From a virus: 36,565 bases of DNA. Below, piece by piece: positions 14,006-36,565 of this stretch. The position numbers and the translations under genes were made by a program. The DNA lies in IMG/VR virus record IMGVR_UViG_3300037400_001528; one strand, 5' to 3'. Position 1 is the first letter of the stretch. Every line of letters starts with the position of its first letter. The notes below the pieces were generated by a model, which did no database searches, was not told where the DNA came from, and saw nothing but the letters and a program-made list of their open reading frames with translations.

Positions 14006-14009
14006 GCGT

Positions 14010-14710: not shown

Positions 14711-14727
14711 TAGGCGGAGGTTAAGAA

Positions 14728-16929: not shown

Positions 16930-16933
16930 CCCC
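16921..16933 (+). promoter_or_regulatory. GC hairpin 8 nt downstream of VR1 (candidate DGR target-recognition hairpin)
   Basis: ggggc-ata-gcccc. A second hairpin, ccgccc-cgtgt-gggcgg, lies at 16949-16965. Confidence 0.45.
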
Positions 16934-16976
16934 GCAATCCGCTAATCTCCGCCCCGTGTGGGCGGGATAGCGGAAA

Positions 16977-16986
16977 AATGACTATA
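16977..16986 (+). promoter_or_regulatory. Late motif AATGACTATA, copy upstream of the Avd-TR-RT unit
   Basis: Perfect 10-mer, 18 nt before the ATG at 17005. Confidence 0.6.
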
Positions 16987-17004
16987 TGATAAAAGGTTTA
17001 TAAA

Positions 17005-17553: not shown

Positions 17554-17560
17554 GATTTGT

Positions 17561-17656
17561 TATTGCGTCCGCCGCTAATTTCTGCAATGCCAACAACAAT
17601 GGCAATAGCAACTACAACAACGCGAGCAATGCGAACAATTACGTTCGTCCCCGATT
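17561..17656 (+). repeat. DGR template repeat (TR)
   Basis: Contains 30 adenines. In the target frame it carries 12 AAY codons (AAT TTC TGC AAT GCC AAC AAC AAT GGC AAT AGC AAC TAC AAC AAC GCG AGC AAT GCG AAC AAT TAC). Non-coding position between avd and RT. Confidence 0.9.
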
Positions 17657-17809
17657 TGAATGGCGCACAGCGTATTTTTAGACAAGTGCGTTTAACGAAG
17701 GAAATCTTATCCTGCGCCGTAACAAGCCGAACAAAACGGGCGACGCGGTTTGATAAGTCAATACCGCTACACGCGCCCGTTATTTTTTTTATATTTAGGA
17801 TTTTTGAAA
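17657..17809 (+). ncRNA. TR-RT spacer (candidate structured Sp part of the DGR RNA)
   Basis: ggcgca (17662-17667) can pair with tgcgcc (17713-17718). An imperfect hairpin at 17736-17780 (acgggcg/cgcccgt and gcggt/accgc) is followed by a T8 run (17783-17790). Confidence 0.45.
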
Positions 17810-18889
17810 ATGGGTACATTGTACGAAAAGCTGCTAGATCTGAACAACCTACACGAAGCCTACATAAAAAGCAAAAGCGGCGTGGAGTGGAAAGAATCAG
17901 TACAAAAATACGGAATCTACGAGCTGGCACACATTCAAGAATTGAGCGAAGCCCTTAAAAATCATACCTACAGGCAAAAGCCTTTTTATGAGTTCGACAT
18001 CAACGAACGCGGAAAGCAGCGGCATATTAAAAGCCTGCACATCAGCGACCGCGTTTTACAGCGCGCATTATGCGACCAAATATTAACGCCCGAATTGCAG
18101 AAATATTTAATTTATGACAACGGCGCGAGCGTAAAAGATAAAGGGATAGAGTTTTCCCGCCGACGGCTAAAAACACATTTAACACGCTATTATAAAAAGT
18201 ACGGGCGCGACGGCTATATATTGCTGATTGATTTTTCAAAATATTTTGACAATATCCGCCACGACAAACTATTAGAAATGATTGCCGAAAAAATCGACGA
18301 CGCGGAAGTTATAGAACTATTGCGGCATTTAATCACAACGTTCGACACGGCAGAAAACGCGGGGCGTTCGGTTGGAATCGGCAGCCAAATATCACAGATT
18401 GCAGGGATTTTCTACCCGACCCGCATTGATAATTATTGCAAGATAGTCCGCAGCGTAAAATATTACGGCCGCTATATGGACGATACATATATCATTCATA
18501 ACGACAAACAATATTTGCGCGAGCTATTGCACGACATACAGCAGATTTGCGACGAATTAGGAATCATCATAACCAAAAAGAAAACGCAGATTGTAAAACT
18601 TTCAAACGGTTTCACATTTCTAAAAATGCGCTATTTAATCACGGACACAGGAAAGATTATTGTAATTCCATGCAAAGCCAGCATAACACGCGAACGGCGC
18701 AAGCTGCTGAAATTAAAAAGATTTGTATTAGCGGGGCGTATAACACCCGCAGAAATCCGCGAGCAATACAAAAGCTGGCGCGGAAATCTAATCAAATACA
18801 ACGCATATAAAAGCGTTCGCTCCACGGACGCATTATATAAATCACTATTCGGGAGTAATTATGGTCAAAAAGAAAAAGGAATTAACTGA
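17810..18889 (+). CDS. DGR reverse transcriptase
   Basis: Motifs ISDRVLQRAL, LLIDFSKYFDNIRH, VGIGSQISQIAGIFY (DGR-type I/LGxxxSQ), YGRYMDDTYII (YxDD) and FTFLKMRY. I prefer the ATG at 17810 (MGTLYEKL) over the track start at 17750. Confidence 0.9.
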   Translation: MGTLYEKLLDLNNLHEAYIKSKSGVEWKESVQKYGIYELAHIQELSEALKNHTYRQKPFYEFDINERGKQRHIKSLHISDRVLQRALCDQILTPELQKYLIYDNGASVKDKGIEFSRRRLKTHLTRYYKKYGRDGYILLIDFSKYFDNIRHDKLLEMIAEKIDDAEVIELLRHLITTFDTAENAGRSVGIGSQISQIAGIFYPTRIDNYCKIVRSVKYYGRYMDDTYIIHNDKQYLRELLHDIQQICDELGIIITKKKTQIVKLSNGFTFLKMRYLITDTGKIIVIPCKASITRERRKLLKLKRFVLAGRITPAEIREQYKSWRGNLIKYNAYKSVRSTDALYKSLFGSNYGQKEKGIN

Positions 18890-19268: not shown

Positions 19269-19296
19269 GCCCCGTAATTATGCGGGGCTTTTTTTT
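19269..19296 (+). terminator. Rho-independent terminator ending the fibre/DGR operon
   Basis: gccccgta-atta-tgcggggc (8-bp stem with one G-U pair) followed by T8. Confidence 0.8.
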
Positions 19297-19306
19297 ATTT
19301 TCCTTA

Positions 19307-19316
19307 AATGACTATA
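19307..19316 (+). promoter_or_regulatory. Late motif AATGACTATA, copy 5 nt upstream of the tape measure ATG
   Basis: Perfect 10-mer immediately after the terminator. Confidence 0.6.
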
Positions 19317-19321
19317 TAAGC

Positions 19322-22057: not shown

Positions 22058-22084
22058 AATAAAGCGAAGCGTAAAGGGGGAAAC

Positions 22085-22450
22085 ATGGCTATAAATTGGA
22101 GCGCGTACTGCAACGCGGATTTTTACGGACAGGACGGCGGATATAAAGAGAACACCGAAGAAGTGGAGTTCAAGAGCGGGCGCACAATCAAATACTTAAA
22201 AAACAGCGCGGCAAAGAAAACACACGCCCTCAACCTTTCATTAAAAGACAAGGGGACGCTCAAAACCGACGGCAAAACGGAGTTTGAGCATTTCCTCTGG
22301 TGGTACGAAAACACAGCCAAAAGCGGCACAATCCCGTGCAACTTGACCGACATAATAACGGGCAGCGGTACAAAACAGTATTTAATTAAAGTTGAGGGCT
22401 GGACAGGCCAGCGGAACAAAGAAGTGAGCCTAGAACTCGAAGAGGTTTAA
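22085..22450 (+). CDS. Minor tail protein (position of lambda gpM)
   Basis: 121 aa, first gene after the tape measure gene. Confidence 0.45.
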   Translation: MAINWSAYCNADFYGQDGGYKENTEEVEFKSGRTIKYLKNSAAKKTHALNLSLKDKGTLKTDGKTEFEHFLWWYENTAKSGTIPCNLTDIITGSGTKQYLIKVEGWTGQRNKEVSLELEEV

Positions 22451-22451
22451 A

Positions 22452-22886
22452 ATGAACATCTACAGACAACTGGCAGAGGGCGGCGGCTATAATCTCCCCT
22501 TTTTGGTGCATTTATCCAGCCCCGACAACGCCACGCATATTTATTTAATCAACGACAATCAAGATATGCCATTCGGCGGCCATACATACGCGGCAAGTAA
22601 TTTTACATACACGCCGAACGAAAACGGCGACAGCACTCTAGACATTGAGCTTGTCGGACATGACGACATCATCGACATTTTGGAAGAAAACGAACATTTC
22701 AACATTGAGGTAATCGGGATTTTTAATGGCGAAGAGGTTGAGGCAATCGAACAGCATAAACATAAATACGGTGAAGTTACATGGAGTGCCGTAAAATCGG
22801 AAATGAAGCTAAATAAAGATGACCGTGGGGAAATGACTTTTCCCGCATTGATTTTCAATTCATACAACAACAAAGGGAATAACTAA
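22452..22886 (+). CDS. Minor tail protein (position of lambda gpL)
   Basis: 144 aa, second gene after the tape measure gene. Confidence 0.4.
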   Translation: MNIYRQLAEGGGYNLPFLVHLSSPDNATHIYLINDNQDMPFGGHTYAASNFTYTPNENGDSTLDIELVGHDDIIDILEENEHFNIEVIGIFNGEEVEAIEQHKHKYGEVTWSAVKSEMKLNKDDRGEMTFPALIFNSYNNKGNN

Positions 22887-22888
22887 AA

Positions 22889-23299
22889 ATGAAATATGAC
22901 GACTTGCTAAATATCCCGTTTAAGAAGTTCGGGCGCGACAAAAGTGGCTATGACTGCTACGGCGCAGTAATGGAGTGCTGCAAGCGGGCGGGAACACCGC
23001 TAAAAGATTTATACGGCGACATTGTAGACCTCCCCGCCGATAGCGTAAATGACTATATAGGCGGGGGATTGAATGTAAAAGAAATAGACGCTCCGAAAGT
23101 GGGTGCGCTTGTATATTCAATCTACAAAGGCAATGTTCACGTAGGCTATATCGTAGAACGCGGGAAAGTTTTACACGCCACAATAGACAAGGGAATAAAA
23201 ATATCTCCATTGGCGGCATTGCACCCCATAGCATATTATGAGGTTGTAAATGAAAGCGACGCTATACAAGGAACTGTCAAACAAAAAGACCCCGATTGA
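22889..23299 (+). CDS. NlpC/P60-family tail tip protein (gpK-like)
   Basis: Catalytic Cys context GYDCYGAVMEC and His context GNVHVGYIVERGKVLHAT. Its position matches lambda gpK. Confidence 0.6.
   Translation: MKYDDLLNIPFKKFGRDKSGYDCYGAVMECCKRAGTPLKDLYGDIVDLPADSVNDYIGGGLNVKEIDAPKVGALVYSIYKGNVHVGYIVERGKVLHATIDKGIKISPLAALHPIAYYEVVNESDAIQGTVKQKDPD
23048..23057 (+). promoter_or_regulatory. Late motif AATGACTATA, intragenic copy about 190 nt upstream of the J-like gene
   Basis: Perfect 10-mer followed by TAGGCGG, the same 17-nt string as the copy at 14701. Lies inside CDS 22889-23299. Confidence 0.45.
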
Positions 23300-26200
23300 A
23301 GTAAAGGCCGGGCAGACAATCAGAGAAGCCCTGCCCGATTTTGACCTTGAAAACGCAATCATTTTAATAAACGGAAAAATCAAGAATCCAGGCTACCGAC
23401 TGAAAGAAAACGATACCGTTATGATAAGGCTTACCCCCGGCAGTACAACCGCAGTTATGATTACTTTAATTATTGTTGCGGTTGTAGCCGTCGGTGCGGG
23501 CGTTGCGGGCGGAATTGCTGCATACAAAGCAAAGCTGGCGGCGGAAAAAGCACAGGAAGAGCTTGAAAAAGTAAAAAGGCTCACAAACAAAAGCGACATC
23601 GACAACCGCCCGTTTTTACGGGGTGCGTCTAACACATTGGCAACAGGTAACAGCCAGCCGTATATCATCGGGCGGCATTTTTTCACTCCGTATTTATTGA
23701 GCAGCCCATTTTATAAGATTACAGGAACGGACGGCGCGGACGAATACACATATACCGTGCTGGAATGTGGATTCAATCAACAGATAATCCAAAAGCTCGC
23801 CATTGACGACATCGTAATAAAATCATTCTCGCAGACATCGCCGCAAGAGGGTGCATTTAATCTCGACACGGGTATTTTCGCAGAGGACGGACTCGTCGAA
23901 ATTGCACAGGACGGCGCATTATTAACAGAACTGCCCGCCTTGAACTACAAAACCGAATCAAAGGCTTGCAATGATGAAATTCCACACGATAGCGATGTAG
24001 TAGCAGGCACACAGAAATATTTGACCTACACGCTCAACCCATACGCCAAAGATGTTGATATTGCTATCACTTTCCCGTATGGCCTTTATGCCATGAATGA
24101 CGACGGCGACAAAATTGAAACGCAAACGACAATCACACCGCAGTATTCATTGGACGGCGGCAGCACATGGACAGATTTTACATTCGACAACAACGGCACG
24201 GCCACAAATACATTTAAGCGCAATGTGTCTACAAAAGAATTGCGCTATGTAGCCCACAAAGATTTTACACTCGCAAACTATAACACATTGTACGCCAACG
24301 GGCAGAAATCTATTTATATCAGAATCCGCAACAACGGCAACGCGGGCGACAGCATGATACATAATGATTGCTATGTATTGTATTATCAGAGCGTTTGCTT
24401 TGACCCCGACAAAAGCGCGGATGAATTGATACCATGCAAGATTGTAGAGGACAGGGAACGCGCTTTCTGCACCATTTTAGGCTTGAAGCTGAAAGCAACA
24501 AAAATAAACGAGGATAAATTAAAGAAAATCAATATCATATCGCACGGCGTAGCCCGCACATGGAACGGCACGGAATGGAGCAGCACGAAAAGCGCAACCC
24601 GTAACCCCGCCGCTTGGGTATTGGAAATTGAAACCAGCGACAGCCACCCAGCAAGCAAGTATTTAGATAGCGAAATAGACCTCGACAGCTTCGGCGATTA
24701 TTACGAATGGTGCGAGCTGAACGGCTACAAGTTCGATTATGTAATCACGCAGAACATGAAAAAAGACGATGTATTAAATTACATCATGGAAGCTACAGGC
24801 GCGTGCATCTATACCGATATTTACGGACGGCGCGCCGTTGCATTTGACCACCCGCAGGAAAACGCGCTCGCGGTTTATAACCCGCAGAACATTATAGACA
24901 TTCAGAATAAAAAGACATTTGGCCGCAGAACCGACGCGCTCCGCATAAAATGGGTAAACAGCAGTGATGATTTATTCCAAGAAGATACATACCTACTTAT
25001 GCGCGAAGTTGACGGCGTACCTTTGACGCTGAACGAAAACAGTATAATAAAAGATGTAACAATAACAGGAATCACGACCTTTGACCACATCGTCAAATAT
25101 GCCCGCCGTTTAATGTCCGTTGAGATTTTGCGCCCGAAAACCACCATTATTGAAGTCGGAAACGAGGGTATTTTTTACACCCCGCTGTCAAAGATTTTAA
25201 TACAGGACGACAGTTTAAAAATTGGAATCGGCAAAGGCTACACAATCCGCGAATGTGTATGGCAAAGCGGATTGTTGAAAAAGATTTACACAAACGAGCT
25301 TCTCACATTCGACCCGCAGAAATCCTACGGAATAATCGTTAACTGCTATTCCATCGACGACGGAAAGCCCGTAGCGATTAAGGTAACAGGCACGGGCACA
25401 ACCGACGAATTAACCGTAATAACACCTATTCGCAGTAGCGCGGCATTTAAGCCCGAAAGCGGTAATATTTTCAGCTTCGGCGAATTAGACACCGACGGCG
25501 AGTTTAGCAAAGTAACGAACGAATATTTAATCGGCGACATCAAGCGCAGCGACAAAGGCTTTAATCTTGAATTGGTAAACTACAATGAAGCCATATATGA
25601 CAGCGGCACAATCCCCGAATATAAAAGCAATATCACCAAAAAGGCGACGGCAGAGAAAAAGGGAATCCCAGCCGACGCGGTAACGCATGAGGAATTATTA
25701 GAAACCGTCGCAACCGTGGACGGCACAAAGGCCGCACAGGAAGCGGCAAATGAAGTTGTCCACGGAATCCATTTTACAAATGTACACCGCATTAAAGATA
25801 TGGAGTTATCGCTCGAAGAAATCCTCGACAGAATCGACAGCGATGCAGCAGAAGCCGCAGCGGGTATATCCGTGTCCGAAGAAGAAATTTTAATGAAGGT
25901 CGCGGACACCGAAGCAGAACTTCTCGCCGTTTTGGATATACAGGCCAGCGCAATAACGGCAATGGTACAGGGCGGCGGCGCAACAGGTCAAATGTCGCTA
26001 TCCCTCGAATTGCCCGTAATGATTGACGCAACCACCCGTGCGCAATTCGTACAGGCCAGCACCGAAGCGAAAGTCGCCGCCGTATATGCGCAGCTAGAGG
26101 GTACAAGCGGCGCGGGCATAAGATACGCAATCAAGGGCAGCGCAAGCAACGCAGCCGTAAAAGCATTATGGGATGACGCTGTGGCGGGCGCATTGATTGC

Positions 26201-26948
26201 AAGCCAAATTGATTTAACCGCCACGCAAATCCACATCAACGCGCAGAATGTACAGATTGACGGCAAAACAATCATCAGTAACGCAAAAAAAATAAAAGCG
26301 GCTTTAATTGAAGTAGATGAACTTTTATCGCAAAATATAACACTGAAACAGAGTGGATATATTAAGAGTTCAAACTATGCGGAATCGGACGGCTACCCGA
26401 CAGCGGGTTTTATGCTGGACTGCGCAAACAATATTATCAAGGCGTATCAACTTCAAGCCGTGGGAGGGGTTTTTAAGGAAGGCATTTTTGAAGGGCTAGT
26501 TCAATGTGGAGTTTTCAACGTAACAAAAAGAACGATACAAACTAATATTTTATATTACAACACCGACCAAAAGTCAGACTTTGAAAGCTATTATAACGGA
26601 ACATGGGGACGTAAGTATAGCTATACGGGTTCTGTTGCCGCATTATATGGAGATAACTCTTATATTAGAATTGGGGAAAACAGATACAGAAATATAGATA
26701 TTCATATATATAACAAAAGAACCATAGACATTAGTTTTTACGCTTATAATGATGTGAATAATAAAATACTAATATATGAAGCGTACGGTTCTGCCGCGTT
26801 AGAATCGGATATGTATTATCCATACTGGATAGAACACTATCAAGAAAACGCCTTAATAGCAGAATTTGCCAATCTGCCAACTTTTGACCCCCACATATTA
26901 GGAATAGTATGGAATCAGGACGGGAGCCTCAAAGTATCGGCAGGGTAA
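23250..26948 (+). CDS. Host-specificity / central tail fibre protein (gpJ-like) with a fused gpI-like N-terminal beta-grasp and TM segment
   Basis: 1232 aa. The N-terminus KTPIEVKAGQTIREALPD...INGKIKNPGYRLKENDTVMIRLTPGS is ThiS/ubiquitin-like and is followed by a hydrophobic helix. Size and position match lambda I+J. The last ~220 codons are visibly AT-rich. Confidence 0.65.
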   Translation: MKATLYKELSNKKTPIEVKAGQTIREALPDFDLENAIILINGKIKNPGYRLKENDTVMIRLTPGSTTAVMITLIIVAVVAVGAGVAGGIAAYKAKLAAEKAQEELEKVKRLTNKSDIDNRPFLRGASNTLATGNSQPYIIGRHFFTPYLLSSPFYKITGTDGADEYTYTVLECGFNQQIIQKLAIDDIVIKSFSQTSPQEGAFNLDTGIFAEDGLVEIAQDGALLTELPALNYKTESKACNDEIPHDSDVVAGTQKYLTYTLNPYAKDVDIAITFPYGLYAMNDDGDKIETQTTITPQYSLDGGSTWTDFTFDNNGTATNTFKRNVSTKELRYVAHKDFTLANYNTLYANGQKSIYIRIRNNGNAGDSMIHNDCYVLYYQSVCFDPDKSADELIPCKIVEDRERAFCTILGLKLKATKINEDKLKKINIISHGVARTWNGTEWSSTKSATRNPAAWVLEIETSDSHPASKYLDSEIDLDSFGDYYEWCELNGYKFDYVITQNMKKDDVLNYIMEATGACIYTDIYGRRAVAFDHPQENALAVYNPQNIIDIQNKKTFGRRTDALRIKWVNSSDDLFQEDTYLLMREVDGVPLTLNENSIIKDVTITGITTFDHIVKYARRLMSVEILRPKTTIIEVGNEGIFYTPLSKILIQDDSLKIGIGKGYTIRECVWQSGLLKKIYTNELLTFDPQKSYGIIVNCYSIDDGKPVAIKVTGTGTTDELTVITPIRSSAAFKPESGNIFSFGELDTDGEFSKVTNEYLIGDIKRSDKGFNLELVNYNEAIYDSGTIPEYKSNITKKATAEKKGIPADAVTHEELLETVATVDGTKAAQEAANEVVHGIHFTNVHRIKDMELSLEEILDRIDSDAAEAAAGISVSEEEILMKVADTEAELLAVLDIQASAITAMVQGGGATGQMSLSLELPVMIDATTRAQFVQASTEAKVAAVYAQLEGTSGAGIRYAIKGSASNAAVKALWDDAVAGALIASQIDLTATQIHINAQNVQIDGKTIISNAKKIKAALIEVDELLSQNITLKQSGYIKSSNYAESDGYPTAGFMLDCANNIIKAYQLQAVGGVFKEGIFEGLVQCGVFNVTKRTIQTNILYYNTDQKSDFESYYNGTWGRKYSYTGSVAALYGDNSYIRIGENRYRNIDIHIYNKRTIDISFYAYNDVNNKILIYEAYGSAALESDMYYPYWIEHYQENALIAEFANLPTFDPHILGIVWNQDGSLKVSAG

Positions 26949-26958
26949 TATATTTTAA

Positions 26959-27645
26959 TTATTGAATATCTTTAAAACGAACCTCCCGGATGCGACCCGT
27001 ACGAAGAATCATATCATTTAGGTAATCTTTTATTTCGGTTTTTACAGCTTCATTTACCGGGGAAAAATCGGCGGCGTTTTTTTGGGCGATGAAAACCTTT
27101 AGATAATCCTTGATTATAAAATCATAGCTGGCTATTTCCGACGGCGTAGTTGTATCATCGGGTTTATATCCGAAAGAAACGGAGAGCGAAACCGCTACGC
27201 CGTCCGCAGTTTTATTTTCAACGGTAAACTCTTCCGTCCACGAATAAACATCACCAGATGTTTTGTAGTAATCAGCTACCTCAAATTCATACGGTATATC
27301 ATCGAACTTGACCGAATAACGCCCCTTTGAGCATTTTGCCTTTAATTCAATCGGCTTTACAGAATAATAATCATAGCGCGAGCCGTCTTTTTTTGCGAAA
27401 TCGAATAATTCCAAACGGTCGCCGTCTATTGGTAAATCGGCGGTATAAAAATAAACGCCGTTCAAAGTCCATTCGATATTTTTTATTCCCGCACCAGTAT
27501 TATTATTTACCCAGTAAAACACCTGCGGGACATTAAAATCTTTTGAGTTATTTTCTACGCTGATATTGAGATTTTGAGCCGAGCAGGAAACAAACTGAAC
27601 GGTAAAGCAGACCAAAAAAGCCGCAAACAAGGATTTGCTTTTCAC
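26959..27645 (-). CDS. Lipoprotein (candidate superinfection-exclusion / moron product)
   Basis: From the GTG at 27645: VKSKSLFAAFLVCFTVQFVSCSAQN has a basic n-region, a hydrophobic core and Cys after FVS. The G8 tract sits 5 nt upstream as an SD. The track start at 27660 is a GTG inside or adjacent to the G tract. Confidence 0.6.
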   Translation of the reverse strand: MKSKSLFAAFLVCFTVQFVSCSAQNLNISVENNSKDFNVPQVFYWVNNNTGAGIKNIEWTLNGVYFYTADLPIDGDRLELFDFAKKDGSRYDYYSVKPIELKAKCSKGRYSVKFDDIPYEFEVADYYKTSGDVYSWTEEFTVENKTADGVAVSLSVSFGYKPDDTTTPSEIASYDFIIKDYLKVFIAQKNAADFSPVNEAVKTEIKDYLNDMILRTGRIREVRFKDIQ

Positions 27646-27650
27646 TTCTA

Positions 27651-27658
27651 CCCCCCCC
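27651..27658 (-). repeat. G8 homopolymer (C8 on the + strand), 5 nt upstream of the lipoprotein start
   Basis: The minus strand reads GTGGGGGGGGtagaaGTG. Confidence 0.85.
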
Positions 27659-27702
27659 ACTTATGTATAGTACATTTATGAGGGTTGATATAATTTAAGA
27701 TT

Positions 27703-27747: not shown

Positions 27748-29001
27748 CTAACCCGCGCGGATTGTAGCCCGCCCGCTATGCGTGTCGGTGTAGAAATAGC
27801 GGTAAATCAATTCTTTCTCGACAATCGACATTTGGTCGCCTACGCAATCAGTTATCGGCTCGGCTAATTCTACATCGTAGTATCTGCCGTCCATGTAAGC
27901 TCGTAGCCCGAAATTTTCAGACAGGCATAGAATAAAACGAACGCAGGAAGCATATTTAGCAATCAGTTTGAAAGAATAGCCGTGATAAATAAAATGCCCG
28001 TCCGCATGGGTTTTCTTTTCTGCGCGTACCGAAAACAGGTAATCAAAATCAACATCGGCGGCGGGCGGTGCTTTCCAGTGTAGGGCTTCATCTTGCGCGG
28101 GAACGGAAAAACGGGCGTTAAACCCGTCAATAAATCCATTTAAAAAAGCGTTCGCCTTTTCGATTGTATCAATATGCAGGAATCGGAAAATATAAGGAAG
28201 CCGTCCCTGCAAAGTTTGCCACAATCGTTCTATGCGCCCTTTGGCTTGCGGGGAGTATGCGGCAATCAATTCTATTTGCAATTCGCGACAAGTTTTTTGC
28301 CATTGCGTTTCAGATTTTTCCGCGCCCGCTAATTGCTCTTCCAGCGTAGCCCCGCGCGTAGTAAAAAAGCATTGCGCACGGTCGGAATAAATGGCGCACG
28401 GCAACAGGCCGCCCGTCCGTATAAATATCTGCCAAAGAAGCTGGTAATATCCTAAAAGACATTCATTCACGCAGAAATACAGGGCAACTACTTTATGGGT
28501 AGCATCATCTATCGCACCATGCAGGGTGACTTTTTGCCCGTTCATAAACCAATCATGCAGGGAAGCGTCAATCTGAATCAAATCGCCCTCATTCGGGCGT
28601 TCATCGCGCGGCAGATGTTTCTTTTTTTCACGCACAGGAATACGGGCGCGTGGCGACACAATGCCAGCCGAAGAAAGAGCTGTGTAAAAAGTCGTATACG
28701 ACGGCAGGACGGGATAATGCAGATAATCCGCGCAATCATCCCGGAACGAAGCGAACGGCGTGCCATCAAACTTTTTATAATCGGCGGCGATTTTTTCCCA
28801 ATCATATTTTTTATTTTTCGGCTTGCGCCCAGTATTGCCGTGAATCCATATAGCGTCGCCATATTGCACCCACCGAGATTTTAGTCGCCAAACCGAAACG
28901 GGGCGAATCCCGATTAAACGCGCACACTCCCGCTCGCTAATTTCCCCACGCGCAAACATCGGAATATAACGCATTTTTAATTTTTGTAACTCGTAATTCA
29001 T
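27748..29001 (-). CDS. DDE transposase/integrase with an rve core (ISNCY/IS1202-like)
   Basis: N-terminal HTH (ISERECARLIGIRPVSVWRLK) followed by LIQIDAS (D), AIYSDRAQCF (D) and YSPQAKGRIERLWQTLQGRL (E). I prefer the ATG at 29001, because the track start at 29067 is a TTG. Confidence 0.75.
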   Translation of the reverse strand: MNYELQKLKMRYIPMFARGEISERECARLIGIRPVSVWRLKSRWVQYGDAIWIHGNTGRKPKNKKYDWEKIAADYKKFDGTPFASFRDDCADYLHYPVLPSYTTFYTALSSAGIVSPRARIPVREKKKHLPRDERPNEGDLIQIDASLHDWFMNGQKVTLHGAIDDATHKVVALYFCVNECLLGYYQLLWQIFIRTGGLLPCAIYSDRAQCFFTTRGATLEEQLAGAEKSETQWQKTCRELQIELIAAYSPQAKGRIERLWQTLQGRLPYIFRFLHIDTIEKANAFLNGFIDGFNARFSVPAQDEALHWKAPPAADVDFDYLFSVRAEKKTHADGHFIYHGYSFKLIAKYASCVRFILCLSENFGLRAYMDGRYYDVELAEPITDCVGDQMSIVEKELIYRYFYTDTHSGRATIRAG

Positions 29002-29209
29002 GGTCTGACAATCGGACACGACACGGGGAACCTTTAGCACATCGGGAAAATATGCGATTTTCCGCAATCGTAATTATTTATTATATATAGATTTACTGCA
29101 ATCAATTATTTTGTTATACAAAATCTGCATTTGCATAATTTGCATAACGCTTGTATACAAATGCTATTTTTGCAGACAAGGCAAATACAAAGTAGATTTT
29201 TGCACTATG

Positions 29210-29391: not shown

Positions 29392-29420
29392 TTGACTTTT
29401 CGGCGGGCTGGGATTATATT
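29392..29420 (+). promoter_or_regulatory. Sigma-70-type early promoter
   Basis: TTGACT (29392-29397), a 17-nt spacer, then TATATT (29415-29420). Faces the early operon. Confidence 0.6.
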
Positions 29421-29640: not shown

Positions 29641-29853
29641 ATGGCAAAAAGAAACGCCAGCAACAACCCGCTTTTTAGGAAAATCCGCGAACTGGAAGAA
29701 AAAGCACTGAAAGCGGGAATCATCGGAAAAGACGACATCAAAACATCGGAAGCCATGCGAGAAGAAGCGTGGGAATGTTATCTAATCGGTCGCATGGAAT
29801 GGCTTGAAAAATCAATCAAAGAACACGAACTAGACACGGGGGCGGAATCATGA
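29641..29853 (+). CDS. Hypothetical early protein
   Basis: 70 aa with an AGAGG RBS. First gene of the early operon. Confidence 0.6.
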   Translation: MAKRNASNNPLFRKIRELEEKALKAGIIGKDDIKTSEAMREEAWECYLIGRMEWLEKSIKEHELDTGAES

Positions 29854-30182
29854 GCGGCTACCCTATCGAACTAATCACTGACTACAGGGCGGGAAAAATC
29901 AGTCGCCAGCAATTCACAAAACAATTCAGCGACTGGCAGAAATCACACGGCATTAACTACGACTGCAAGGGAATCGGCGGAAAAGTCTGGCTTGGATTAA
30001 CCTACCGCGGAAAAAATGCGGTTATCAAGAATGGCGTTATTGAATGGGTAAGCGGCGAATACCGCGACACCAAAAAGGGAAACCGCCGATTTATCCGCGA
30101 CACTGCGGGAAGCATTACGGAATTCATGCGTAAAGTTGATATAGCAATTTGCGACAGGCTAAGGGGCACGGCATGGAACTGA
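29850..30182 (+). CDS. Hypothetical early protein
   Basis: 110 aa with an ATGA start overlapping the upstream stop. Confidence 0.6.
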   Translation: MSGYPIELITDYRAGKISRQQFTKQFSDWQKSHGINYDCKGIGGKVWLGLTYRGKNAVIKNGVIEWVSGEYRDTKKGNRRFIRDTAGSITEFMRKVDIAICDRLRGTAWN

Positions 30183-30517
30183 AAGACATACCCGAAAGCG
30201 CGGTAATCCAGCAAGTGAAACAGGTAATCAAAGTGACGGGCTTGAAAATCCAGCGCATAAACACGGGCTGTTTCACAATCGGCGAGGGAGCAAACCGCCG
30301 CTTCATCAAGACGGCGGACGCGGGAACTTGCGACTTCGAGGGCTACGACAACATAGGGCGTTTCGTGGCGATTGAGTGCAAGCGACCGAGCGGCGGGCGG
30401 CTATCACCCGCGCAGAAAGAACGGATAGCGGACATCAACCGAAAAGGCGGCGTTGCCTTTGTAGCCCACAGCGGCGAAGAAGCACTGGCAAAGCTGAAAG
30501 AAAAACATTGCATTTGA
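30173..30517 (+). CDS. VRR-NUC domain nuclease (PD-(D/E)xK)
   Basis: GTCDFEGY...FVAIECKRPSGGRLSPAQKERIADINRKGGVAFVAHSGEEA matches the D...ExK VRR-NUC pattern. The ATG at 30173 overlaps the upstream stop. Confidence 0.7.
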   Translation: MELKDIPESAVIQQVKQVIKVTGLKIQRINTGCFTIGEGANRRFIKTADAGTCDFEGYDNIGRFVAIECKRPSGGRLSPAQKERIADINRKGGVAFVAHSGEEALAKLKEKHCI

Positions 30518-30533
30518 CAAGGGGGTGCGAGAA

Positions 30534-31079
30534 ATGCAGGAACAGGAAGAAGAGAAAAAGAAAATCCCGATACCGCAAATCATGCTGATTTTACTCCAGC
30601 AGTTGAACTACACGGCACACGAGAAAGAAGCGGTTTTGCAGTGCGAGGAAAGCGGAAGCAAGGTCGCAAACTTGCAGGGATTTTTAGCGGGCGTTCGCTC
30701 GTACAAGAAAGCCCTGCGCGATAACGGCTACACATTCGACATCAAGTTTGACAGCACGGAAGAGCGCAAACTGCCGTATTTCAGCGATGACGGGTGCGAG
30801 ATTGGGCTTGCAGAATTGCGCGAGGTATGCTCGGACATCGACGAAATGACCGACAGCGCGGACTATAAGAACTTCCAAGAATTGTTGCAGAAAGCCGTGG
30901 ACATTCAAAAAGACAGGCTTTTTTACACCAGCGAAAAGGGGCGTGATTTGCATTTTGCAAAAGGCTGGTATGAAGCCATGAGCGCGACAGGCGCAACCAT
31001 GCTCCGACTGCACACAGCATTAGACGCGGCAGAAAAGGAAGCCGCCGAAAGCCTGTCGTTTGACGACGACAGCGAATAA
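30534..31079 (+). CDS. Hypothetical early protein with an acidic C-terminus
   Basis: The ATG at 30534 has an AGGGGG RBS 8 nt upstream, whereas the track start at 30525 is a GTG. No motif recognised. Confidence 0.55.
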   Translation: MQEQEEEKKKIPIPQIMLILLQQLNYTAHEKEAVLQCEESGSKVANLQGFLAGVRSYKKALRDNGYTFDIKFDSTEERKLPYFSDDGCEIGLAELREVCSDIDEMTDSADYKNFQELLQKAVDIQKDRLFYTSEKGRDLHFAKGWYEAMSATGATMLRLHTALDAAEKEAAESLSFDDDSE

Positions 31080-31198
31080 GGGAGCGGGCGCAGAGGGCGC
31101 AAGCGGAAACGCTAGGCGGGTTCAAATCCCGCCCGTTCCAAAAGGCGGAAGCGGTGCGCAACGCGGAAGCCTAAAAAATTGATTTACGAGGTGCGAAC

Positions 31199-31372
31199 AT
31201 GAAAAACGCAATTTTGCAAATCTGCGAGAAATTACGCGGATATTCAAGCGATAAAGATTACTTCGAGGTAATCAAGGCGAATCAGAACGAGAACGGCGAC
31301 TTTGTTGTAGTTTGCCGCGCCGTAGAAGCACAGGCAGAACCACAGGGGGCAAAAGATGAAAGTGACAAATAG
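31199..31372 (+). CDS. Small hypothetical protein (57 aa)
   Basis: Hand-translated: MKNAILQICEKLRGYSSDKDYFEVIKANQNENGDFVVVCRAVEAQAEPQGAKDESDK. GAGGTG RBS. Overlaps the next start by 17 nt. Confidence 0.45.
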   Translation: MKNAILQICEKLRGYSSDKDYFEVIKANQNENGDFVVVCRAVEAQAEPQGAKDESDK

Positions 31373-32219
31373 ATTACATCTGCCCGAAGCATTTGTGAAA
31401 GCCGTAAGCGTTGAACGCCACAACAAGGCGGGGCAGTATTCAGCAACCACGCTCAACAAAGGCGTGAAAGAAATCATCTTACAGGAACGCCACTGGGAAG
31501 AATTCACCGTAGACGCGGCGGACAGCGTGTGGGCGACATTCGGCACGGCTTTTCATGCAATCATGGAAAAATACGAGGACGGCAACTTTCACGAAGAAAA
31601 GTTCGACATTGCCGTTTCAAAATCCCGCGTAACGGGCGTTGTAGACAGCTACGACATGGAGCGCGGAATCATCAACGACTGGAAAACCGCCAGCGTATAC
31701 AAGGTGATGAAAGGCGACTTTTCGGACTGGTACAAGCAGGGCATGACCTACGCATGGCTCTTGAAGCAGAACGGCTTAGATGTTCATAAATGCCGCTTCA
31801 TCGTCGGTTTGAAAGACCACAGCATGACAAAAGCGGAAACCGACAGGACTTACCCGCAAGCCCCCGTATTCATTTACGAGTTTGAGGTTACACCCGAAGA
31901 ACTCGCACAGACGGGCAAAAGAATCACCGCAAAAGTAAAGGCAATCGAAGCCGCCGAAAAACAGGGCGACGACGATATAGAGCCATGCACACCCGAAGAA
32001 CGCTGGGCGGACGGCGACAAATGGGCGGTAATGAAGAACGGACGCAAAACAGCAATCCGCGTTTTTGATACGGAAATCGACGCGGAAAACTGCGCGGGCG
32101 AACTTGGCAACAGCCACTATGTAGAACACCGCCCAGCCGTTAGCCGTAAATGCGGCAAATACTGCCTTTGCAAAGACTTCTGCAATTTCTACAAATCACA
32201 GAACGGGGGCGCGAAATGA
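31356..32219 (+). CDS. PD-(D/E)xK exonuclease, RecB/Cas4-like with a C-terminal Cys cluster
   Basis: FGTAFHAIME, VVDSYD, IINDWKT (D...D/ExK), QGMTYAWLL, and C-terminal CGKYCLCKDFC. Sits upstream of SSB and ERF as the recombination exonuclease. Confidence 0.65.
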   Translation: MKVTNRLHLPEAFVKAVSVERHNKAGQYSATTLNKGVKEIILQERHWEEFTVDAADSVWATFGTAFHAIMEKYEDGNFHEEKFDIAVSKSRVTGVVDSYDMERGIINDWKTASVYKVMKGDFSDWYKQGMTYAWLLKQNGLDVHKCRFIVGLKDHSMTKAETDRTYPQAPVFIYEFEVTPEELAQTGKRITAKVKAIEAAEKQGDDDIEPCTPEERWADGDKWAVMKNGRKTAIRVFDTEIDAENCAGELGNSHYVEHRPAVSRKCGKYCLCKDFCNFYKSQNGGAK

Positions 32220-32647
32220 CAGACTTAAACAGCGTTGTTGAAATCGGACGGCTTACCCGCGACATAAGCGAGCGCGATTTTGCGTATACGACAGCGGGCA
32301 AAGCACGGCTAAACCTTAGCATTGCCGTAAACCGTAGCGAGAAGCGCGGCGGCGAATGGGCGGACAAGGTAAGTTTTTTTGATGTGACCGTTTGGGGCAA
32401 GACAGCGGAAAACATCAAGCCATATCTGCACAAGGGCAAGCAGATAGCCGTGGACGGCTACCTTGACCAGCAGAGGTGGGAAAAGGACGGCGTGAGATAC
32501 AGCAAGGTTTGTATCATCGCGAACAATGTACAGTTGCTCGGCGGCAACGAAGCGCAGGGAGCGGCACAGCCGACAGCCCCGCAAGAACCAGCGGGCGACT
32601 ATTCGGACGCAGACGGCGGCGACTTTCCCGAAGATATACTGTTCTAA
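32216..32647 (+). CDS. ssb: Single-stranded DNA-binding protein
   Basis: OB-fold pattern (NSVVEIGRLTRD...FFDVTVWGKTAENI..YLHKGKQIAVDGYL), a Gly/Pro/Gln-rich linker and an acidic tip DFPEDILF. ATGA start overlaps the upstream stop. Confidence 0.85.
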   Translation: MTDLNSVVEIGRLTRDISERDFAYTTAGKARLNLSIAVNRSEKRGGEWADKVSFFDVTVWGKTAENIKPYLHKGKQIAVDGYLDQQRWEKDGVRYSKVCIIANNVQLLGGNEAQGAAQPTAPQEPAGDYSDADGGDFPEDILF

Positions 32648-32659
32648 CAGGGGGCAGAC

Positions 32660-33457
32660 ATGATACAGAGCGAAGAAATAAGCGAACTTTTAGCCGCGCT
32701 GGTAGAAGTTCAAAGCGAATTGCAGACAATTCAAAAAGGCGAAACCGCACAAGGAAACAAGTTTTCTTACAAATACGCAAGCCTTGACGCAATCGCACAG
32801 GAAATAAAGCCTATTTTGCATAATCACGGGGTAGCCTATATGCAGAGCGTAGGCGGTTTGAATACAAATGCACTGACCCTTACAACACGCATTTTTAACA
32901 ACAAGGGGCAATACATCGAGGACACCGCCGCTTTACCACCTGTAAACGGCGGAAGCAATGCGGCACAGGCTTTAGGCATGAGCATTACTTATATGCGTCG
33001 ATATGCGTTAAGTGCAATGCTCGGAATTACCAGCGATGAAGATACAGACGGAAACGGTTATAAAACAACTCCAACACAGGAGAGCCAGCAACCACAGAAA
33101 ACGACGGAAAAACAGCCGCAACCGACTACTTCATCAAAAAAGACATCAAAAACGAAACAGCCCGCAAAGTTGCCGTTCACACCAAAGGGCGGCGAATCGA
33201 CACCCGAAGAAAAGGCGCGAATAAAAGAACTTTGCGAAGCGAAATACGCAAACGGCAAGCGGATTTTCAGCAATGAAGAAATCAAGACATACAGCGGTTA
33301 CAGGCAGACGAAAACCGCCCGCGAATTGATAGCGTTCATTGAAAACGCCCTGCGCAACAGACGCGGTGACGCGCCCGAATTGCCGCCAGCCGAACCAGCC
33401 CCGCCCGCACAGCCGAGCGCGGAAAATTTAGCAGACCAAGCGTTTGACATTTACTAA
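32660..33457 (+). CDS. erf: ERF-family single-strand annealing protein
   Basis: KFSYKYASLDAIAQEIKPILHNHGV...LTTRIF...AQALGMSITYMRRYALSAMLGITSDEDTDGNG matches the ERF core. Low-complexity C-terminus. Confidence 0.75.
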   Translation: MIQSEEISELLAALVEVQSELQTIQKGETAQGNKFSYKYASLDAIAQEIKPILHNHGVAYMQSVGGLNTNALTLTTRIFNNKGQYIEDTAALPPVNGGSNAAQALGMSITYMRRYALSAMLGITSDEDTDGNGYKTTPTQESQQPQKTTEKQPQPTTSSKKTSKTKQPAKLPFTPKGGESTPEEKARIKELCEAKYANGKRIFSNEEIKTYSGYRQTKTARELIAFIENALRNRRGDAPELPPAEPAPPAQPSAENLADQAFDIY

Positions 33458-33469
33458 GGGGCGGCGGGA

Positions 33470-33892
33470 ATGGTGCAGTATGTACTAAAGCGCGTGAACA
33501 TCGCGGGGCGCATAGCATTTGAACCGCCCGCCGACGCAGGGGCGAGCGAGAAAATAAAACGCGAACTGCGCAAATGCCGCGACAAGCACAATGATTATGT
33601 ACTGCTTACCATTCAGCCGCCAAAGCACAGGCGCACGACTGGGGAACATTCGCAGAATCACCACCTTAACGGGCATATCATGCAGATTTGCAACGCAACG
33701 CAAAACTCATACAACGCCGTAAAAGATGAAATCAAACGGATAGCAACCGAAGAAATGGGCTACCCATACGAGGAAATCAATGGGCATATACACCCGATAG
33801 GCGAAAGCGAAAGTTCAACGGACGAGTGCGCGAAGCTGATAGAAGCCGCTCATGTATTGGCGGCGGATTTAGGAATTATTTTACAGGAGTAA
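33470..33892 (+). CDS. NinB/Orf-like recombination mediator (tentative)
   Basis: VLLTIQPPKHRRTTGEHSQNHHLNGHIMQIC and ESESSTDECAKLIEAAHVLAADLGIIL parallel lambda NinB segments (VVTIQERNRSLDQNRKLWACLGDV and QSTSRMRVGEFAELLELIQAFG). Confidence 0.4.
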   Translation: MVQYVLKRVNIAGRIAFEPPADAGASEKIKRELRKCRDKHNDYVLLTIQPPKHRRTTGEHSQNHHLNGHIMQICNATQNSYNAVKDEIKRIATEEMGYPYEEINGHIHPIGESESSTDECAKLIEAAHVLAADLGIILQE

Positions 33893-33898
33893 AACACT

Positions 33899-34627
33899 AT
33901 GAATATCAACATCAAAAATTGCGATGTAAACATCATCACAGGAACGGAAACACTGGAAATCAGCGGAAAAACAGAAATCACAGCCGCAGATAAAACGCCA
34001 GCGACAAACACAGAATCAACACCAGCAGAGGAAACGGGGGTTATTTCACAAATGACCTACACGCCTAAATCAATTTTGAAAAACTTTGACAATGTGCGAA
34101 TCGGCGACCGCGTTAGACTGCCCGCCTTTACCGTTCCAGCCGTAAAAATGGACGGCGAAGAGGTGCTGGCTTTTGATGAAAAACACATCAACGCAGACGA
34201 AGCCATAGTTATTGGCAAAGACGAAAACGGCGATTTGATTTTGATTTTCGACCATTGCCTTTTTGAAAGCGCAATAGATTTGAACAACGAAAAGCGTTTT
34301 GAAATGACACAGCTGGGGCAGTATTTGCAAAGCGAGTTTTTACGGGCAATGAATGGCGCGGGAATCCCCGCCGAAAGTTGCGGGCTTATCAGCAAAGAAG
34401 AGATGTTCGGCGACAATGCGCTTGAATATTTCAAGACGGGGCGCAACCGCATAGCCTTTGATTTTGATGAAGATTGTAGCCGCTACTATTGGCTTTCGAC
34501 ATTGTACGACGAAGAAGCGTCCGCCGCTTATTTCTGCGATGCCAGCAGCTATGGCTATAGCGACTGCAACGGCGCGAGCGATGCGGACTTTTACGTTCGT
34601 CCCCGCTTCGTAATATCTGCAATCTAA
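33899..34627 (+). CDS. DGR target protein 2 (remote target), a small CLec-type variable protein in the early operon
   Basis: 242 aa. The C-terminus YYWLSTLYDEEASAAYFCDASSYGYSDCNGASDADFYVRPRF is encoded by VR2. No N-terminal signal peptide or TM segment is evident. Confidence 0.85.
   Translation: MNINIKNCDVNIITGTETLEISGKTEITAADKTPATNTESTPAEETGVISQMTYTPKSILKNFDNVRIGDRVRLPAFTVPAVKMDGEEVLAFDEKHINADEAIVIGKDENGDLILIFDHCLFESAIDLNNEKRFEMTQLGQYLQSEFLRAMNGAGIPAESCGLISKEEMFGDNALEYFKTGRNRIAFDFDEDCSRYYWLSTLYDEEASAAYFCDASSYGYSDCNGASDADFYVRPRFVISAI
34517..34608 (+). repeat. DGR variable repeat VR2 (remote, 16952 nt downstream of the TR)
   Basis: Ungapped 92-nt alignment to TR 17565-17656. All 15 mismatches fall at TR adenines (9 A->G, 5 A->T, 1 A->C). 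Confidence 0.9.
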
Positions 34628-34633
34628 CAATCT

Positions 34634-34651
34634 GCGGGGCTTCGTCCCCGC
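34634..34651 (+). promoter_or_regulatory. GC hairpin downstream of VR2 (candidate DGR target-recognition hairpin)
   Basis: gcgggg-cttcgt-ccccgc. Its 3' arm, ttcgtccccgc (34641-34651), repeats the VR2 3' end (34596-34606). Confidence 0.45.
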
Positions 34652-34668
34652 ATGATAAGGGGGAACAA

Positions 34669-34845
34669 ATGGGAACAAAGGATTTTATAGCATTAGTTGC
34701 ACAAATGAGGACGAATCAAAAAGCGTACTTCAAAACGCGCAGCTATGAAGCATTGAACGAATCGAAGCGGCTTGAAAAGCTCGTCGATAACGCAATCGAA
34801 GAAATGACCGCCCCGAAAAATCCACAGCAAGAGTTAGGATTATGA
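34669..34845 (+). CDS. Small hypothetical protein (58 aa)
   Basis: Hand-translated: MGTKDFIALVAQMRTNQKAYFKTRSYEALNESKRLEKLVDNAIEEMTAPKNPQQELGL. AAGGGGG RBS. The stop overlaps the next ATG (ATGA). Confidence 0.5.
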   Translation: MGTKDFIALVAQMRTNQKAYFKTRSYEALNESKRLEKLVDNAIEEMTAPKNPQQELGL

Positions 34846-35144
34846 CGGAAACGGAGAAAGAGCAGCGACGCTACGCGCTGGCAATCAGCGGCGGCGTTTG
34901 CGAGGTTTGCGGGCGGCCATTGCGCGACGGACAGCCGCAGGGGGCGCACCGCATAGGAAATACAAAAGCGAACCGCGCGAAATACGGGGATTTTGTTATA
35001 GACCACCGCCTTAATATCGGTATGACCTGTTGCTTGAAATGCAATGGTGCGCTGGATATAAGCGGCAACACGGGCGAAGCAATAAAACTTTGCCGCAGAA
35101 TCTACGACATGGAAGCGCAGAAATACGAGAGAAAAAAGCAATGA
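34842..35144 (+). CDS. HNH-like zinc-finger nuclease (tentative)
   Basis: CEVCG...GAHRIGN...N...CCLKCN resembles the CxxC...H...N...CxxC HNH layout. Confidence 0.4.
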   Translation: MTETEKEQRRYALAISGGVCEVCGRPLRDGQPQGAHRIGNTKANRAKYGDFVIDHRLNIGMTCCLKCNGALDISGNTGEAIKLCRRIYDMEAQKYERKKQ

Positions 35145-35752
35145 GAGAATCATTTGTTTTTCACAAAGACTACATCGAGGATTTGCCCGAGCAATACAAA
35201 ACCGAGTTTATACAAGCAACGATAAACTACGGACTGTATGGCGAAAACCCGCCGTTTAAAGACGGAACGCTTGAAATGGCATTGTGGGCGAAAATTGCCC
35301 GCCGTATAGACGCAGAAGCTGAAAAATACAAGGCAATCAGCGAGAAGCGGAAAGAAGCGGCTCAAAAACGCTATCAGCAGAGAACGAAACCAGCGAGGGA
35401 AGAGCCAGCGAAAACCGAACAGGCGGAACAAAAGGCGGCAACGCCCGAAGAAAGCCCCGCAGAATCGCAGACGGCAAAGCCAAAAAAAGCGGCGGCGTTC
35501 GTAAAGCCTACCGTTGAAGAAATCCGCGCATATTGCGAGGAAAGAAAGAACGGGCTGGACGCACAGGCTTTCTTTGATTTTTACGAAAGTAAAGGCTGGA
35601 AAGTCGGCGCGGCAAAAATGAAAGACTGGCGGGCAAGCGTCCGCACATGGGAACAGCGGCGCAAGAACGAGAACACAGGCGGAAGCAAGAAAGCGGGCGC
35701 GATGTGGGGCAAAGAAAACGAGATACCCGAAGATTATTTTAATCTGATGTAA
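35141..35752 (+). CDS. Replisome organizer / DnaD-like replication protein
   Basis: ATGA start overlaps the upstream stop. The C-terminal VEEIRAYCEERKNGLDAQAFFDFYESKGWKVGAAKMKDWRASVRTWEQR is a conserved phage replication-protein C-terminus. Directly precedes the DnaC-like loader. Confidence 0.55.
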   Translation: MRESFVFHKDYIEDLPEQYKTEFIQATINYGLYGENPPFKDGTLEMALWAKIARRIDAEAEKYKAISEKRKEAAQKRYQQRTKPAREEPAKTEQAEQKAATPEESPAESQTAKPKKAAAFVKPTVEEIRAYCEERKNGLDAQAFFDFYESKGWKVGAAKMKDWRASVRTWEQRRKNENTGGSKKAGAMWGKENEIPEDYFNLM

Positions 35753-35777
35753 AAACAAAAAAAGAGGTGCGGAGAAA

Positions 35778-36482
35778 ATGGGGGAATTTAAAACAATATC
35801 GGACTTACTTAAAATCGACACGGAACACTGGCAAGCCCGCGACGAAGAAATAAAAGCGTGGGAAAAAGCGCAGAATTTGCGGGCGAAAAAAGAACGCTAC
35901 CAGCGGCAAGTTCCCGAACGCTACTGGAGCGAAAGCATAGACACATACAAGACCGATACGGAAGAGCGGCGCAAGGCGAAAGCAAAAGCCGAGAGTTTCA
36001 TACAGGCTGTAAAATGCGGGAAGTTTCAGACGCTCGTTTTTTTAGGCACGGTCGGCACAGGGAAAACGCACCTAGCAAGCGGCATTGTATACGAGTGCGG
36101 CGGGTTTTACAGGCTTGCGCCCGCAATCGTTGAGGAAATCCGCCGCGCAAAATCATTCAATGCAAAGGAAACAGAAGCGGACATCTTAGACACCTACGGA
36201 CGCGCCAGCCTTTTAGTAATTGACGAAATCGGGCGCGGGGTTGTGGCGGCAGAAGAGCAGTATATGCTTTATCAGATTATCAACGAACGCTACAACCGCC
36301 GAAAGCCTACGGTTTTAATCAGCAATCAGAATAAAAAGGATTTTTTGAATTATGTGGGAATCGCCGCCGCCGACCGCCTAACCGAAAGCGCACAGGTGGT
36401 GGAGTTTACGGGGCAAAGTTACCGCGCCGTCATAAGGCGGGGGGGGGGGGGCTTAAATGAAGCCCGTCCAGCTGGAGTTTGA
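35778..36482 (+). CDS. DnaC/IstB-like AAA+ helicase loader
   Basis: Walker A GTVGTGKTH, Walker B LLVIDEIG, and the sensor region VLISNQ. The 3' end reads through the G13 tract. Confidence 0.8.
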   Translation: MGEFKTISDLLKIDTEHWQARDEEIKAWEKAQNLRAKKERYQRQVPERYWSESIDTYKTDTEERRKAKAKAESFIQAVKCGKFQTLVFLGTVGTGKTHLASGIVYECGGFYRLAPAIVEEIRRAKSFNAKETEADILDTYGRASLLVIDEIGRGVVAAEEQYMLYQIINERYNRRKPTVLISNQNKKDFLNYVGIAAADRLTESAQVVEFTGQSYRAVIRRGGGGLNEARPAGV

Positions 36483-36565
36483 TTTTGGCGAGTTACCGAA
36501 CGAAGAAGCAGAGAAACCAAAGCCCGCCCTGCCCCATTTTGACAATCCGAAATGCGACAACGAGC
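36439..36565. repeat. Terminal overlap copy B (duplicate of 1-127)
   Basis: Identical to 1-127. It duplicates the 3' end of the DnaC-like gene and the 5' end of the gene starting at 19. Confidence 0.95.

Follow-up and report, generated by a model that had tools for sequence, protein, structure and literature searches.

A diversity-generating retroelement with a remote second target in the replication module of a temperate phage with gut Treponema relatives

The viral genome IMGVR_UViG_3300037400_001528 (36,565 nucleotides, hereafter the window) carries a diversity-generating retroelement (DGR) whose single template repeat (TR) matches two variable repeats (VRs), one in a gene adjoining the element and the other in a gene far from it, within the recombination and replication module. 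It is almost certain that this one DGR, made up of a reverse transcriptase (RT), the TR and an accessory open reading frame (ORF), diversifies the adjacent target 1, through VR1, and also, in trans, target 2, through VR2, in a circular temperate siphophage of ~36.4 kb with relatives in gut Treponema. The second target had been singled out in an earlier note on this DNA; that observation is confirmed and its interpretation partly supported, while its novelty was overstated.

A second target far from its template

VR2 (34517-34608, + strand) aligns to the TR (17565-17656, + strand) over 92 nt without a gap. As the earlier note had reported, all differences fall on TR adenines (15/15) and every other base is identical, a distribution with a hypergeometric P of 1.2e-9. 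Both repeats lie in the same orientation, 16,952 bp apart (~17 kb in the note) or ~19.5 kb apart along the opposite arc of the circle, and a TR query with its adenines masked to N has no match in the window other than the TR itself and VR2, each of them + strand. The ORF at 33899-34627 (+ strand) runs through VR2 in phase 0, and VR2 encodes residues 207-237 of the 242-aa product of this ORF, target 2, in keeping with the C-terminal location first described. Because of this phase, the TR contributes 12 in-frame AAY codons; with two AGC and two TAC codons, they provide 16 variable positions between residues 211 and 232, corresponding to a coding capacity of ~3e16 possible proteins. VR2 is a genuine second, non-adjacent target of the element.

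The TR, which contains 29 adenines in its 92 nt, is the sole template repeat and is located between the accessory ORF and the RT gene (17750-18889, + strand, with a likely ATG start near 17810). The RT matches Pfam RVT_1 (5.7e-17) and carries both IGSQISQ, conforming to the DGR-type [LIV]GxxxSQ motif, and YMDD. A 182-aa ORF (17005-17553, + strand) occupies the slot of Avd; no Avd or other match was found for it in Pfam, PHROGs, NCBIfam or the PDB, nor by BLASTP against the Avd of phage FP_Toutatis, and it may be a divergent, or a different, DGR accessory protein. This core is adjoined by the gene for the 326-aa target 1 (15949-16929, + strand), which lies upstream of the tape-measure gene; target 1, accessory ORF, TR and RT together span 15949-18889. 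VR1 (16818-16913, + strand; 96 nt) is at the end of the target-1 ORF and differs from the TR at 20 positions, 19 of them adenines (hypergeometric P = 1.7e-11). The lone non-adenine difference, C in the TR (17636) and A in VR1 (16893), has mutated adenines on both sides. The substitutions of VR1 and VR2 are different, except at TR position 17654, where both repeats have C. Similarity between the two targets extends over their C-terminal 61-88 residues, so that the ~35-aa shared tail given in the earlier note was too narrow an estimate.

In the related viral contig L023 (1010-1101), the TR copy agrees for ~46 nt, up to ...GCAATAGCA, and then diverges fully from TTGTAATGACG... onwards, with VR1 retained; this sequence suggests a truncated or disrupted TR. 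No TR was found in the 10-kb flanks of relatives, as expected given the ~17 kb spacing.

Natural variability of VR2

A protein search returned 387 homologues of target 2, and the best 120 of these (74-95% identical) were used to calculate column entropy. Each of the 12 AAY columns reaches 2.7-3.6 bits; adenine-containing codon columns as a whole range from 1.5 to 3.6 bits, except for one AGC column at 0.8, while columns for codons devoid of adenine stay at 0-1.1 bits and residues 1-205 average 0.42 bits. Variation is thus limited to TR-adenine positions, as the earlier note had proposed that read mapping might show. Even between homologues whose residues 1-206 are identical, 8-14 of the 16 variable positions are occupied by different residues. 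In addition, the residues found in the AAY columns are the 15 amino acids that can be reached by NNY, with E, Q, K, M and W jointly accounting for less than 1%. VR1 varies in relatives too; both repeats are therefore variable, and the outcome that the earlier note would have counted as refuting, an invariant VR2 beside a varying VR1, does not hold. Two related but independent contigs stop precisely at the beginning of a VR, L004 at the first VR2 codon (window position 34514) and L006 at VR1 (window position 16824), and many target-2 homologues are found on contigs of only 1-2 kb. These ends and short contigs fit hypervariable repeats that break assemblies through within-sample heterogeneity. 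Judged from these sequences, VR2 is actively diversified in natural populations; being continually diversified in nature, the remote target is therefore not a decaying copy.

Candidate homing elements

The 3' end of VR2 is a GC-rich element resembling the initiation of mutagenic homing (IMH) site (CGTTCGTCCCCGCTTC; 34594-34609, + strand). VR1 and VR2 both read ...CCCCGCTTC at their 3' end, where the TR reads ...CCCCGATTT, and the 3' termini are ...CGTCCCCGCTTC for VR1 and VR2 versus ...CGTCCCCGATTT for the TR. This difference holds beyond the window: when relatives are included, all VR termini read ...CCCCGCTT and all TR termini ...CCCCGATT, with CGATT kept in every TR and CGCTT in every VR of the relatives' loci. 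By analogy with the BPP-1 paradigm, the 3'-end difference between VR and TR would thus behave like the IMH/IMH* distinction.

A GC hairpin (GCGGGG-CTTCGT-CCCCGC; 34634-34651, + strand) is present 25 nt 3' of VR2, past the stop codon, and is not followed by a T-run. It folds as DNA with -9 kcal/mol (z = -3.16 versus shuffled sequence). Among relatives, the hairpin is kept in L002, L003, L007 and L008, occurs as a variant with a 7-bp stem (GCGGGGC/GCCCCGC) in one sub-lineage (L001, L005 and L006), and shows one compensatory pair in L009. Statistical support is specific to VR2, as a hairpin after VR1 is no better than shuffled sequence (z = -0.15). The VR2 hairpin is a candidate stem-loop for target recognition by the DGR.

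The target-2 protein

Target 2 (gene at 33899-34627, + strand) is an acidic protein with VR2 at its C-terminal end. It starts with a near-invariant N-terminus of 23 aa, followed by a variable, disordered linker rich in T, P and E (residues ~24-46) and by a DUF6273/C-type-lectin-like (CLec) domain (residues ~50-242). An AlphaFold2 (AF2) model built from 46 diverse family members has an overall pLDDT of 87, exceeding 95 over residues 50-242, and leaves residues 1-45 disordered; an earlier alignment of 21 close homologues had given a pLDDT of 42 and was discarded. Foldseek searches of BFVD with the model point to viral DUF6273 proteins (E 4.5e-8 to 1e-5, probability 1.0). The best PDB match is 9qa6, in which DUF6273 forms the N-terminal domain of an IgA peptidase secreted by a gut bacterium; it is the only solved structure to contain DUF6273. 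At the sequence level, 40 of the 46 aligned family members match Pfam DUF6273 (PF19789), the best at 9e-18. The CLec-type assignment made in the earlier note is therefore supported by fold and by family; its suggested comparison with the CLec fold gave a divided answer, DUF6273 proteins being matched while no direct structural similarity was found to the solved CLec-fold DGR variable proteins Mtd and TvpA, nor any sequence or Foldseek match to Mtd.

Hydropathy analysis detected no signal peptide or transmembrane (TM) segment in target 2 (the maximum 19-residue Kyte-Doolittle mean is 0.88), in line with the first description. No structural-protein or tail/receptor-binding-protein (RBP) domain match was found in Pfam or PHROGs, and no other ORF of the window has an N-terminal anchor in common with target 2. 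The net charge of the protein is -21; acidity was considered as a clue to DNA mimicry and rejected as not discriminating, several structural proteins being similarly acidic. An exhaustive search of 1.84 billion representative proteins returned only 75 clusters, nearly all of standalone proteins of 170-300 aa. Among INPHARED phages, there was no match by megablast of 15000-36565 or by tblastn of target 2, and the link to phage Shimadzu described below was found only by way of a distant family member (P0160) and profile comparison.

Genomic setting

A direct repeat of 127 bp, exact in both copies, forms the two ends of the window (1-127 and 36439-36565), and related contigs read across the junction; the assembly is therefore circular, with a length of ~36,438 bp. 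It corresponds to a temperate siphophage whose close relatives are found in metagenome-assembled genomes of gut Treponema or Spirochaetia, in one case within a 119-kb Treponema contig.

Target 2 is contained in a rightward operon (29641-36482, + strand). The upstream recombination block, with matches to PHROG 2139 and PHROG 44, includes genes for an exonuclease (31356-32219, + strand) and an SSB (32150-32647, + strand); next come an ERF gene (32660-33457, + strand; Pfam ERF 5e-29) and a 140-aa ORF without family match (33470-33892, + strand), which ends 6 nt before the start of target 2. On the other side, a 41-nt spacer and two small ORFs precede the genes for a DUF6291 protein (35030-35752, + strand; Pfam 3.6e-11) and an IstB/DnaC-like ATPase (35778-36482, + strand; Pfam IstB_IS21 1e-15). 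This neighbourhood (33.1-36.6 kb) is colinear in 10/10 related loci, and the tail module spans 19280-26948, leaving target 2 outside. Placement in the recombination/replication module rather than with the tail genes, as originally put forward, thus holds; the labels then given to the neighbours, 'NinB-like' for the 140-aa ORF and 'HNH-like', have been abandoned for want of any family match. The best sigma-70-like promoter match (TTGACT-17-TATATT; 29392-29420, + strand), which is a consensus match only, is upstream of the operon, and no convincing + strand terminator was found between it and target 2. From this position, it is reasonable to infer that target 2 belongs to an early operon. A weak VRR-NUC match (30149-30517) is also found in the operon.

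The remainder of the window comprises genes for the scaffold and major head proteins (1807-3254), a ParB/methyltransferase (6049-7020), the large terminase (7884-9155), the portal (9181-10569), a MuF-like minor head protein (10714-12552) and the endolysin (12921-13514), followed by the DGR region, the tape measure (19280-22057) and a J-like tail protein (23250-26948). On the circle, only ~4.5 kb separates target 2 from the scaffold and major head genes downstream of it, and the location of both these head genes upstream of terminase and portal is unusual. Two ORFs are encoded on the - strand, one of 233 aa whose C-terminal part weakly resembles FliL (26959-27660) and an ISNCY-family DDE transposase (27748-29067; 295.6 bits versus an NCBIfam cut-off of 250). 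The transposase fills the slot where a temperate phage normally has its integrase; it could be the integration enzyme or part of an inserted insertion sequence. Module order shifts among relatives (6049-14900 compared with L005, L006, L007 and L008). The window has its ParB/terminase/portal/MuF block and its lysis block between the tail-tube-side genes and target 1; these blocks are missing from that position in L006 and their order is swapped in L007 and L008.

Remote targets in other phages

Non-adjacent DGR targets are common within prophages (Wu et al., 2018, PMC5758913), and the largest metagenomic survey of DGRs was unable to see them (PMC8144416). The prophage targets, together with Quimbyvirus and orf43 of phage Shimadzu, already document non-adjacent or non-structural targets, contrary to the novelty implied by the earlier note. 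Other gut phages with this two-target architecture are on record, and what the window adds is a new host phylum.

The closest parallel is orf43 of the Roseburia phage Shimadzu (LR596903), which belongs to the same family as target 2 (hhalign 98.8%, E 6.9e-17, 176 columns). This standalone protein of 209 aa has a C-terminal VR with 15/15 mismatches on adenines of the phage's single TR, 13.9 kb away. Its gene is directly upstream of those for Erf, SSB, a replication initiator and DnaC, a context like that of target 2, and, as in the window phage, the first target adjoins the RT (Avd/RT in Shimadzu) in the tail module. Sequencing of virion DNA established orf43 experimentally as a second DGR target, the reads showing mutation of both VRs (Cornuault et al., bioRxiv 10.1101/575076). 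Shimadzu differs in its Firmicute host, its myovirus morphology and its recognisable Avd. In addition, orf43 is only ~24% identical to target 2 and has neither the conserved N-terminal peptide nor the T/P/E linker.

In Quimbyvirus (Benler et al., 2021, PMC8008677), one DGR serves two C-type-lectin targets, of which one belongs to the structural module. The distal, 'non-structural' target is surrounded by nuclease, methyltransferase and tRNA-ligase genes, and a role in phage-host conflict was proposed for it (PMC8008677); this was the only hypothesis of an anti-defence role for any DGR target that we found in the literature. The likeness to the window is one of published architecture. Quimbyvirus infects Bacteroides and belongs to another phage family, and the strand that carries its distal target is the opposite one; the surroundings there are a DNA-modification/counter-defence island instead of an ERF/SSB/DnaC module. 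Another Bacteroides phage, Bacuni_F1 (MT635598; PMC8143477), encodes a standalone CLec protein of 224 aa (gene 00026) between DNA polymerase A and methyltransferase/primase genes. Its remote VR has 16/17 mismatches on adenines and is 12.6 kb from the TR, and the other target of the phage adjoins Avd/RT. Gene 00026 has a DUF1566 scaffold, of which only the VR segment aligns to target 2 (hhalign 62%), and is annotated as a putative fimbrial tip protein (PMC8143477).

The gp24 protein of the Faecalibacterium phage FP_Toutatis, grouped here with the small target of phage Lelie, is a DUF6273 protein of 215 aa and the product of a core gene of the early region, upstream of the replication initiator and antiterminator Q. 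All 13 mismatches of its VR (13/13) are on adenines of a TR located ~17.5 kb away across the genome ends. It belongs to another DUF6273 subfamily, aligns to target 2 over only 42 columns and has a C-terminal helical extension past the VR. Its authors read it as a likely receptor-binding protein (bioRxiv 10.1101/2024.10.15.618418; PMC11792537). A gp24 homologue with a VR-like C-terminus is found in phage nd4 (L029 9010-9714; OR777945 30965-31669), beside PolIII-exonuclease, SSB and DnaC genes; no TR was present within the 18.5 kb examined. Finally, among the small early ORFs of L027, an unrelated metagenomic contig of 30 kb, one encodes a family member with 16/16 mismatches on adenines and a TR/RT 9.7 kb off. 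A small ORF of the same early region (19991-20161) weakly matches the Acb2/Tad1 hairpin of anti-CBASS/anti-Thoeris sponges; counter-defence genes and a variable target would therefore share one module there. Other family members adjoin RusA, SSB, ParB, DUF6291, IstB or Lar genes.

The prototype of DGR targets is Mtd of Bordetella phage BPP-1, a trimeric protein of the tail-fibre tip whose gene adjoins Avd, TR and RT. Target 2 resembles Mtd by its C-terminal VR with AAY codons, adenine-specific transfer from TR to VR, GC-rich IMH-like end with a candidate hairpin downstream, and lectin-type variable surface; it differs by being remote from the TR and in a replication module.

What target 2 may do

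Following the established DGR model, the RT would copy TR RNA and misincorporate nucleotides opposite its adenines, and the cDNA would then replace the VR. Homing would be directed by the VR-specific GC-rich 3' end and, at VR2, by the conserved hairpin downstream. For target 2, the reading that we favour over a virion adhesin, and to which we give about an even chance, is by analogy that of an early-expressed, non-virion variable binder. It is favoured because placement in the replication module recurs in unrelated phages that use different lectin scaffolds, each of which has a tail-side target too. Target 2 would be produced together with the early and replication genes and would have its place within the infected cell, where, as a variable protein that binds ligands, it would take part in phage-host conflict and not in adsorption.

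Several points weigh against such an intracellular binder. The word 'early' relies on gene order and on one promoter-like match, and, with the genes from ~29.6 kb round to 26.9 kb all on one strand, late expression by read-through is possible. Target 2 itself scores 21.6 bits on Pfam DUF6273, for a gathering threshold of 23.5. The conserved N-terminal peptide and the flexible linker seen in the model would also suit an anchor for docking to the virion, and one family member (L017) is beside a small-terminase gene. To our knowledge, all phage DGR targets characterised experimentally to date are virion proteins. The last point sets the prior for a serious competing explanation, which we nevertheless regard as somewhat less probable than even, namely that target 2 is a virion-associated accessory adhesin or RBP encoded outside the tail module, whose N-terminal peptide docks to capsid or tail and whose linker presents the DUF6273 head to ligands on host or gut surfaces. 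The succession of a 23-aa conserved N-terminus, a disordered linker and a globular head is what such a protein might look like; some of the Foldseek matches with the same domain bear the name tail-collar fibre or receptor-binding protein, the L017 member is near terminase genes, and receptor binding is the interpretation preferred in publications on small DUF6273 targets (PMC10743442; bioRxiv 10.1101/2024.10.15.618418). What argues against a virion adhesin is above all that small CLec targets recur in early, replication or DNA-modification modules of at least five unrelated phage lineages, on different scaffolds, and that each such phage has a second, tail-side target. Target 2 is moreover set between ERF and DnaC-like genes with spacers of 6-41 nt, and shows neither structural-protein similarity nor an N-terminal anchor common to other ORFs of the window.

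Target 2 could also act outside the cell without being part of the virion, if it were released at lysis or exported non-classically to bind neighbouring cells, mucus or host immune molecules. We consider this improbable: the secreted origin of the 9qa6 domain and the likeness of the T/P/E-rich linker to extracellular linkers speak for it, whereas the protein has no signal peptide or TM segment and, once freed, would be unlinked from its encoding genome, which would presumably make selection on DGR variants weak. Least probable of all, to the point of being negligible, is that VR2 is a relic, a chance repeat or the product of an assembly artefact joining two phages, and is not currently diversified by this TR. 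The window is indeed a metagenomic assembly, and module order differs among relatives. Against this stand the adenine-only mismatches (P ~1e-9), population variability exactly at TR-adenine codons even between otherwise identical proteins, the presence of targets 1 and 2 on one contig in L006, relatives that cross the window ends, and the terminal repeat that indicates a closed circle. On these sequence data, a relic or artefact appears refuted for practical purposes.

A broader proposal, which we put forward tentatively and consider rather unlikely, is that remote, small, standalone CLec targets (DUF6273/DUF1566), placed within replication, recombination or DNA-modification modules of temperate gut phages, form a convergent class of early-expressed, intracellular hypervariable binders. 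Examples of this possible class would be the Treponema phage described here, Roseburia phage Shimadzu, Bacteroides phages Bacuni_F1 and Quimbyvirus, and Faecalibacterium phages Toutatis and Lelie.

Implications

As a DGR, the element of the window is ordinary; it adds to a recurring, unexplained pattern. It extends the two-target phage DGR, with one target on the tail side and one in the replication module, to a third bacterial phylum, Spirochaetota. The recurrence in unrelated lineages of small lectin-like targets among early/replication genes is hard to explain as the accidental misplacement of a tail protein, and sharpens the question of what a phage gains from hypermutating a non-tail protein. 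With three analogous phages in culture (Shimadzu, Bacuni_F1 and Toutatis/Lelie), this question is experimentally tractable. If target 2 is intracellular, viral DGRs would be shown to diversify more than adsorption and adhesion proteins. Should the convergent class prove true, such targets would constitute a phage-side 'adaptive' repertoire that neutralises or senses variable intracellular factors of the host, for instance defence proteins, thereby mirroring the DGR-diversified sensor domains proposed for bacterial conflict systems.

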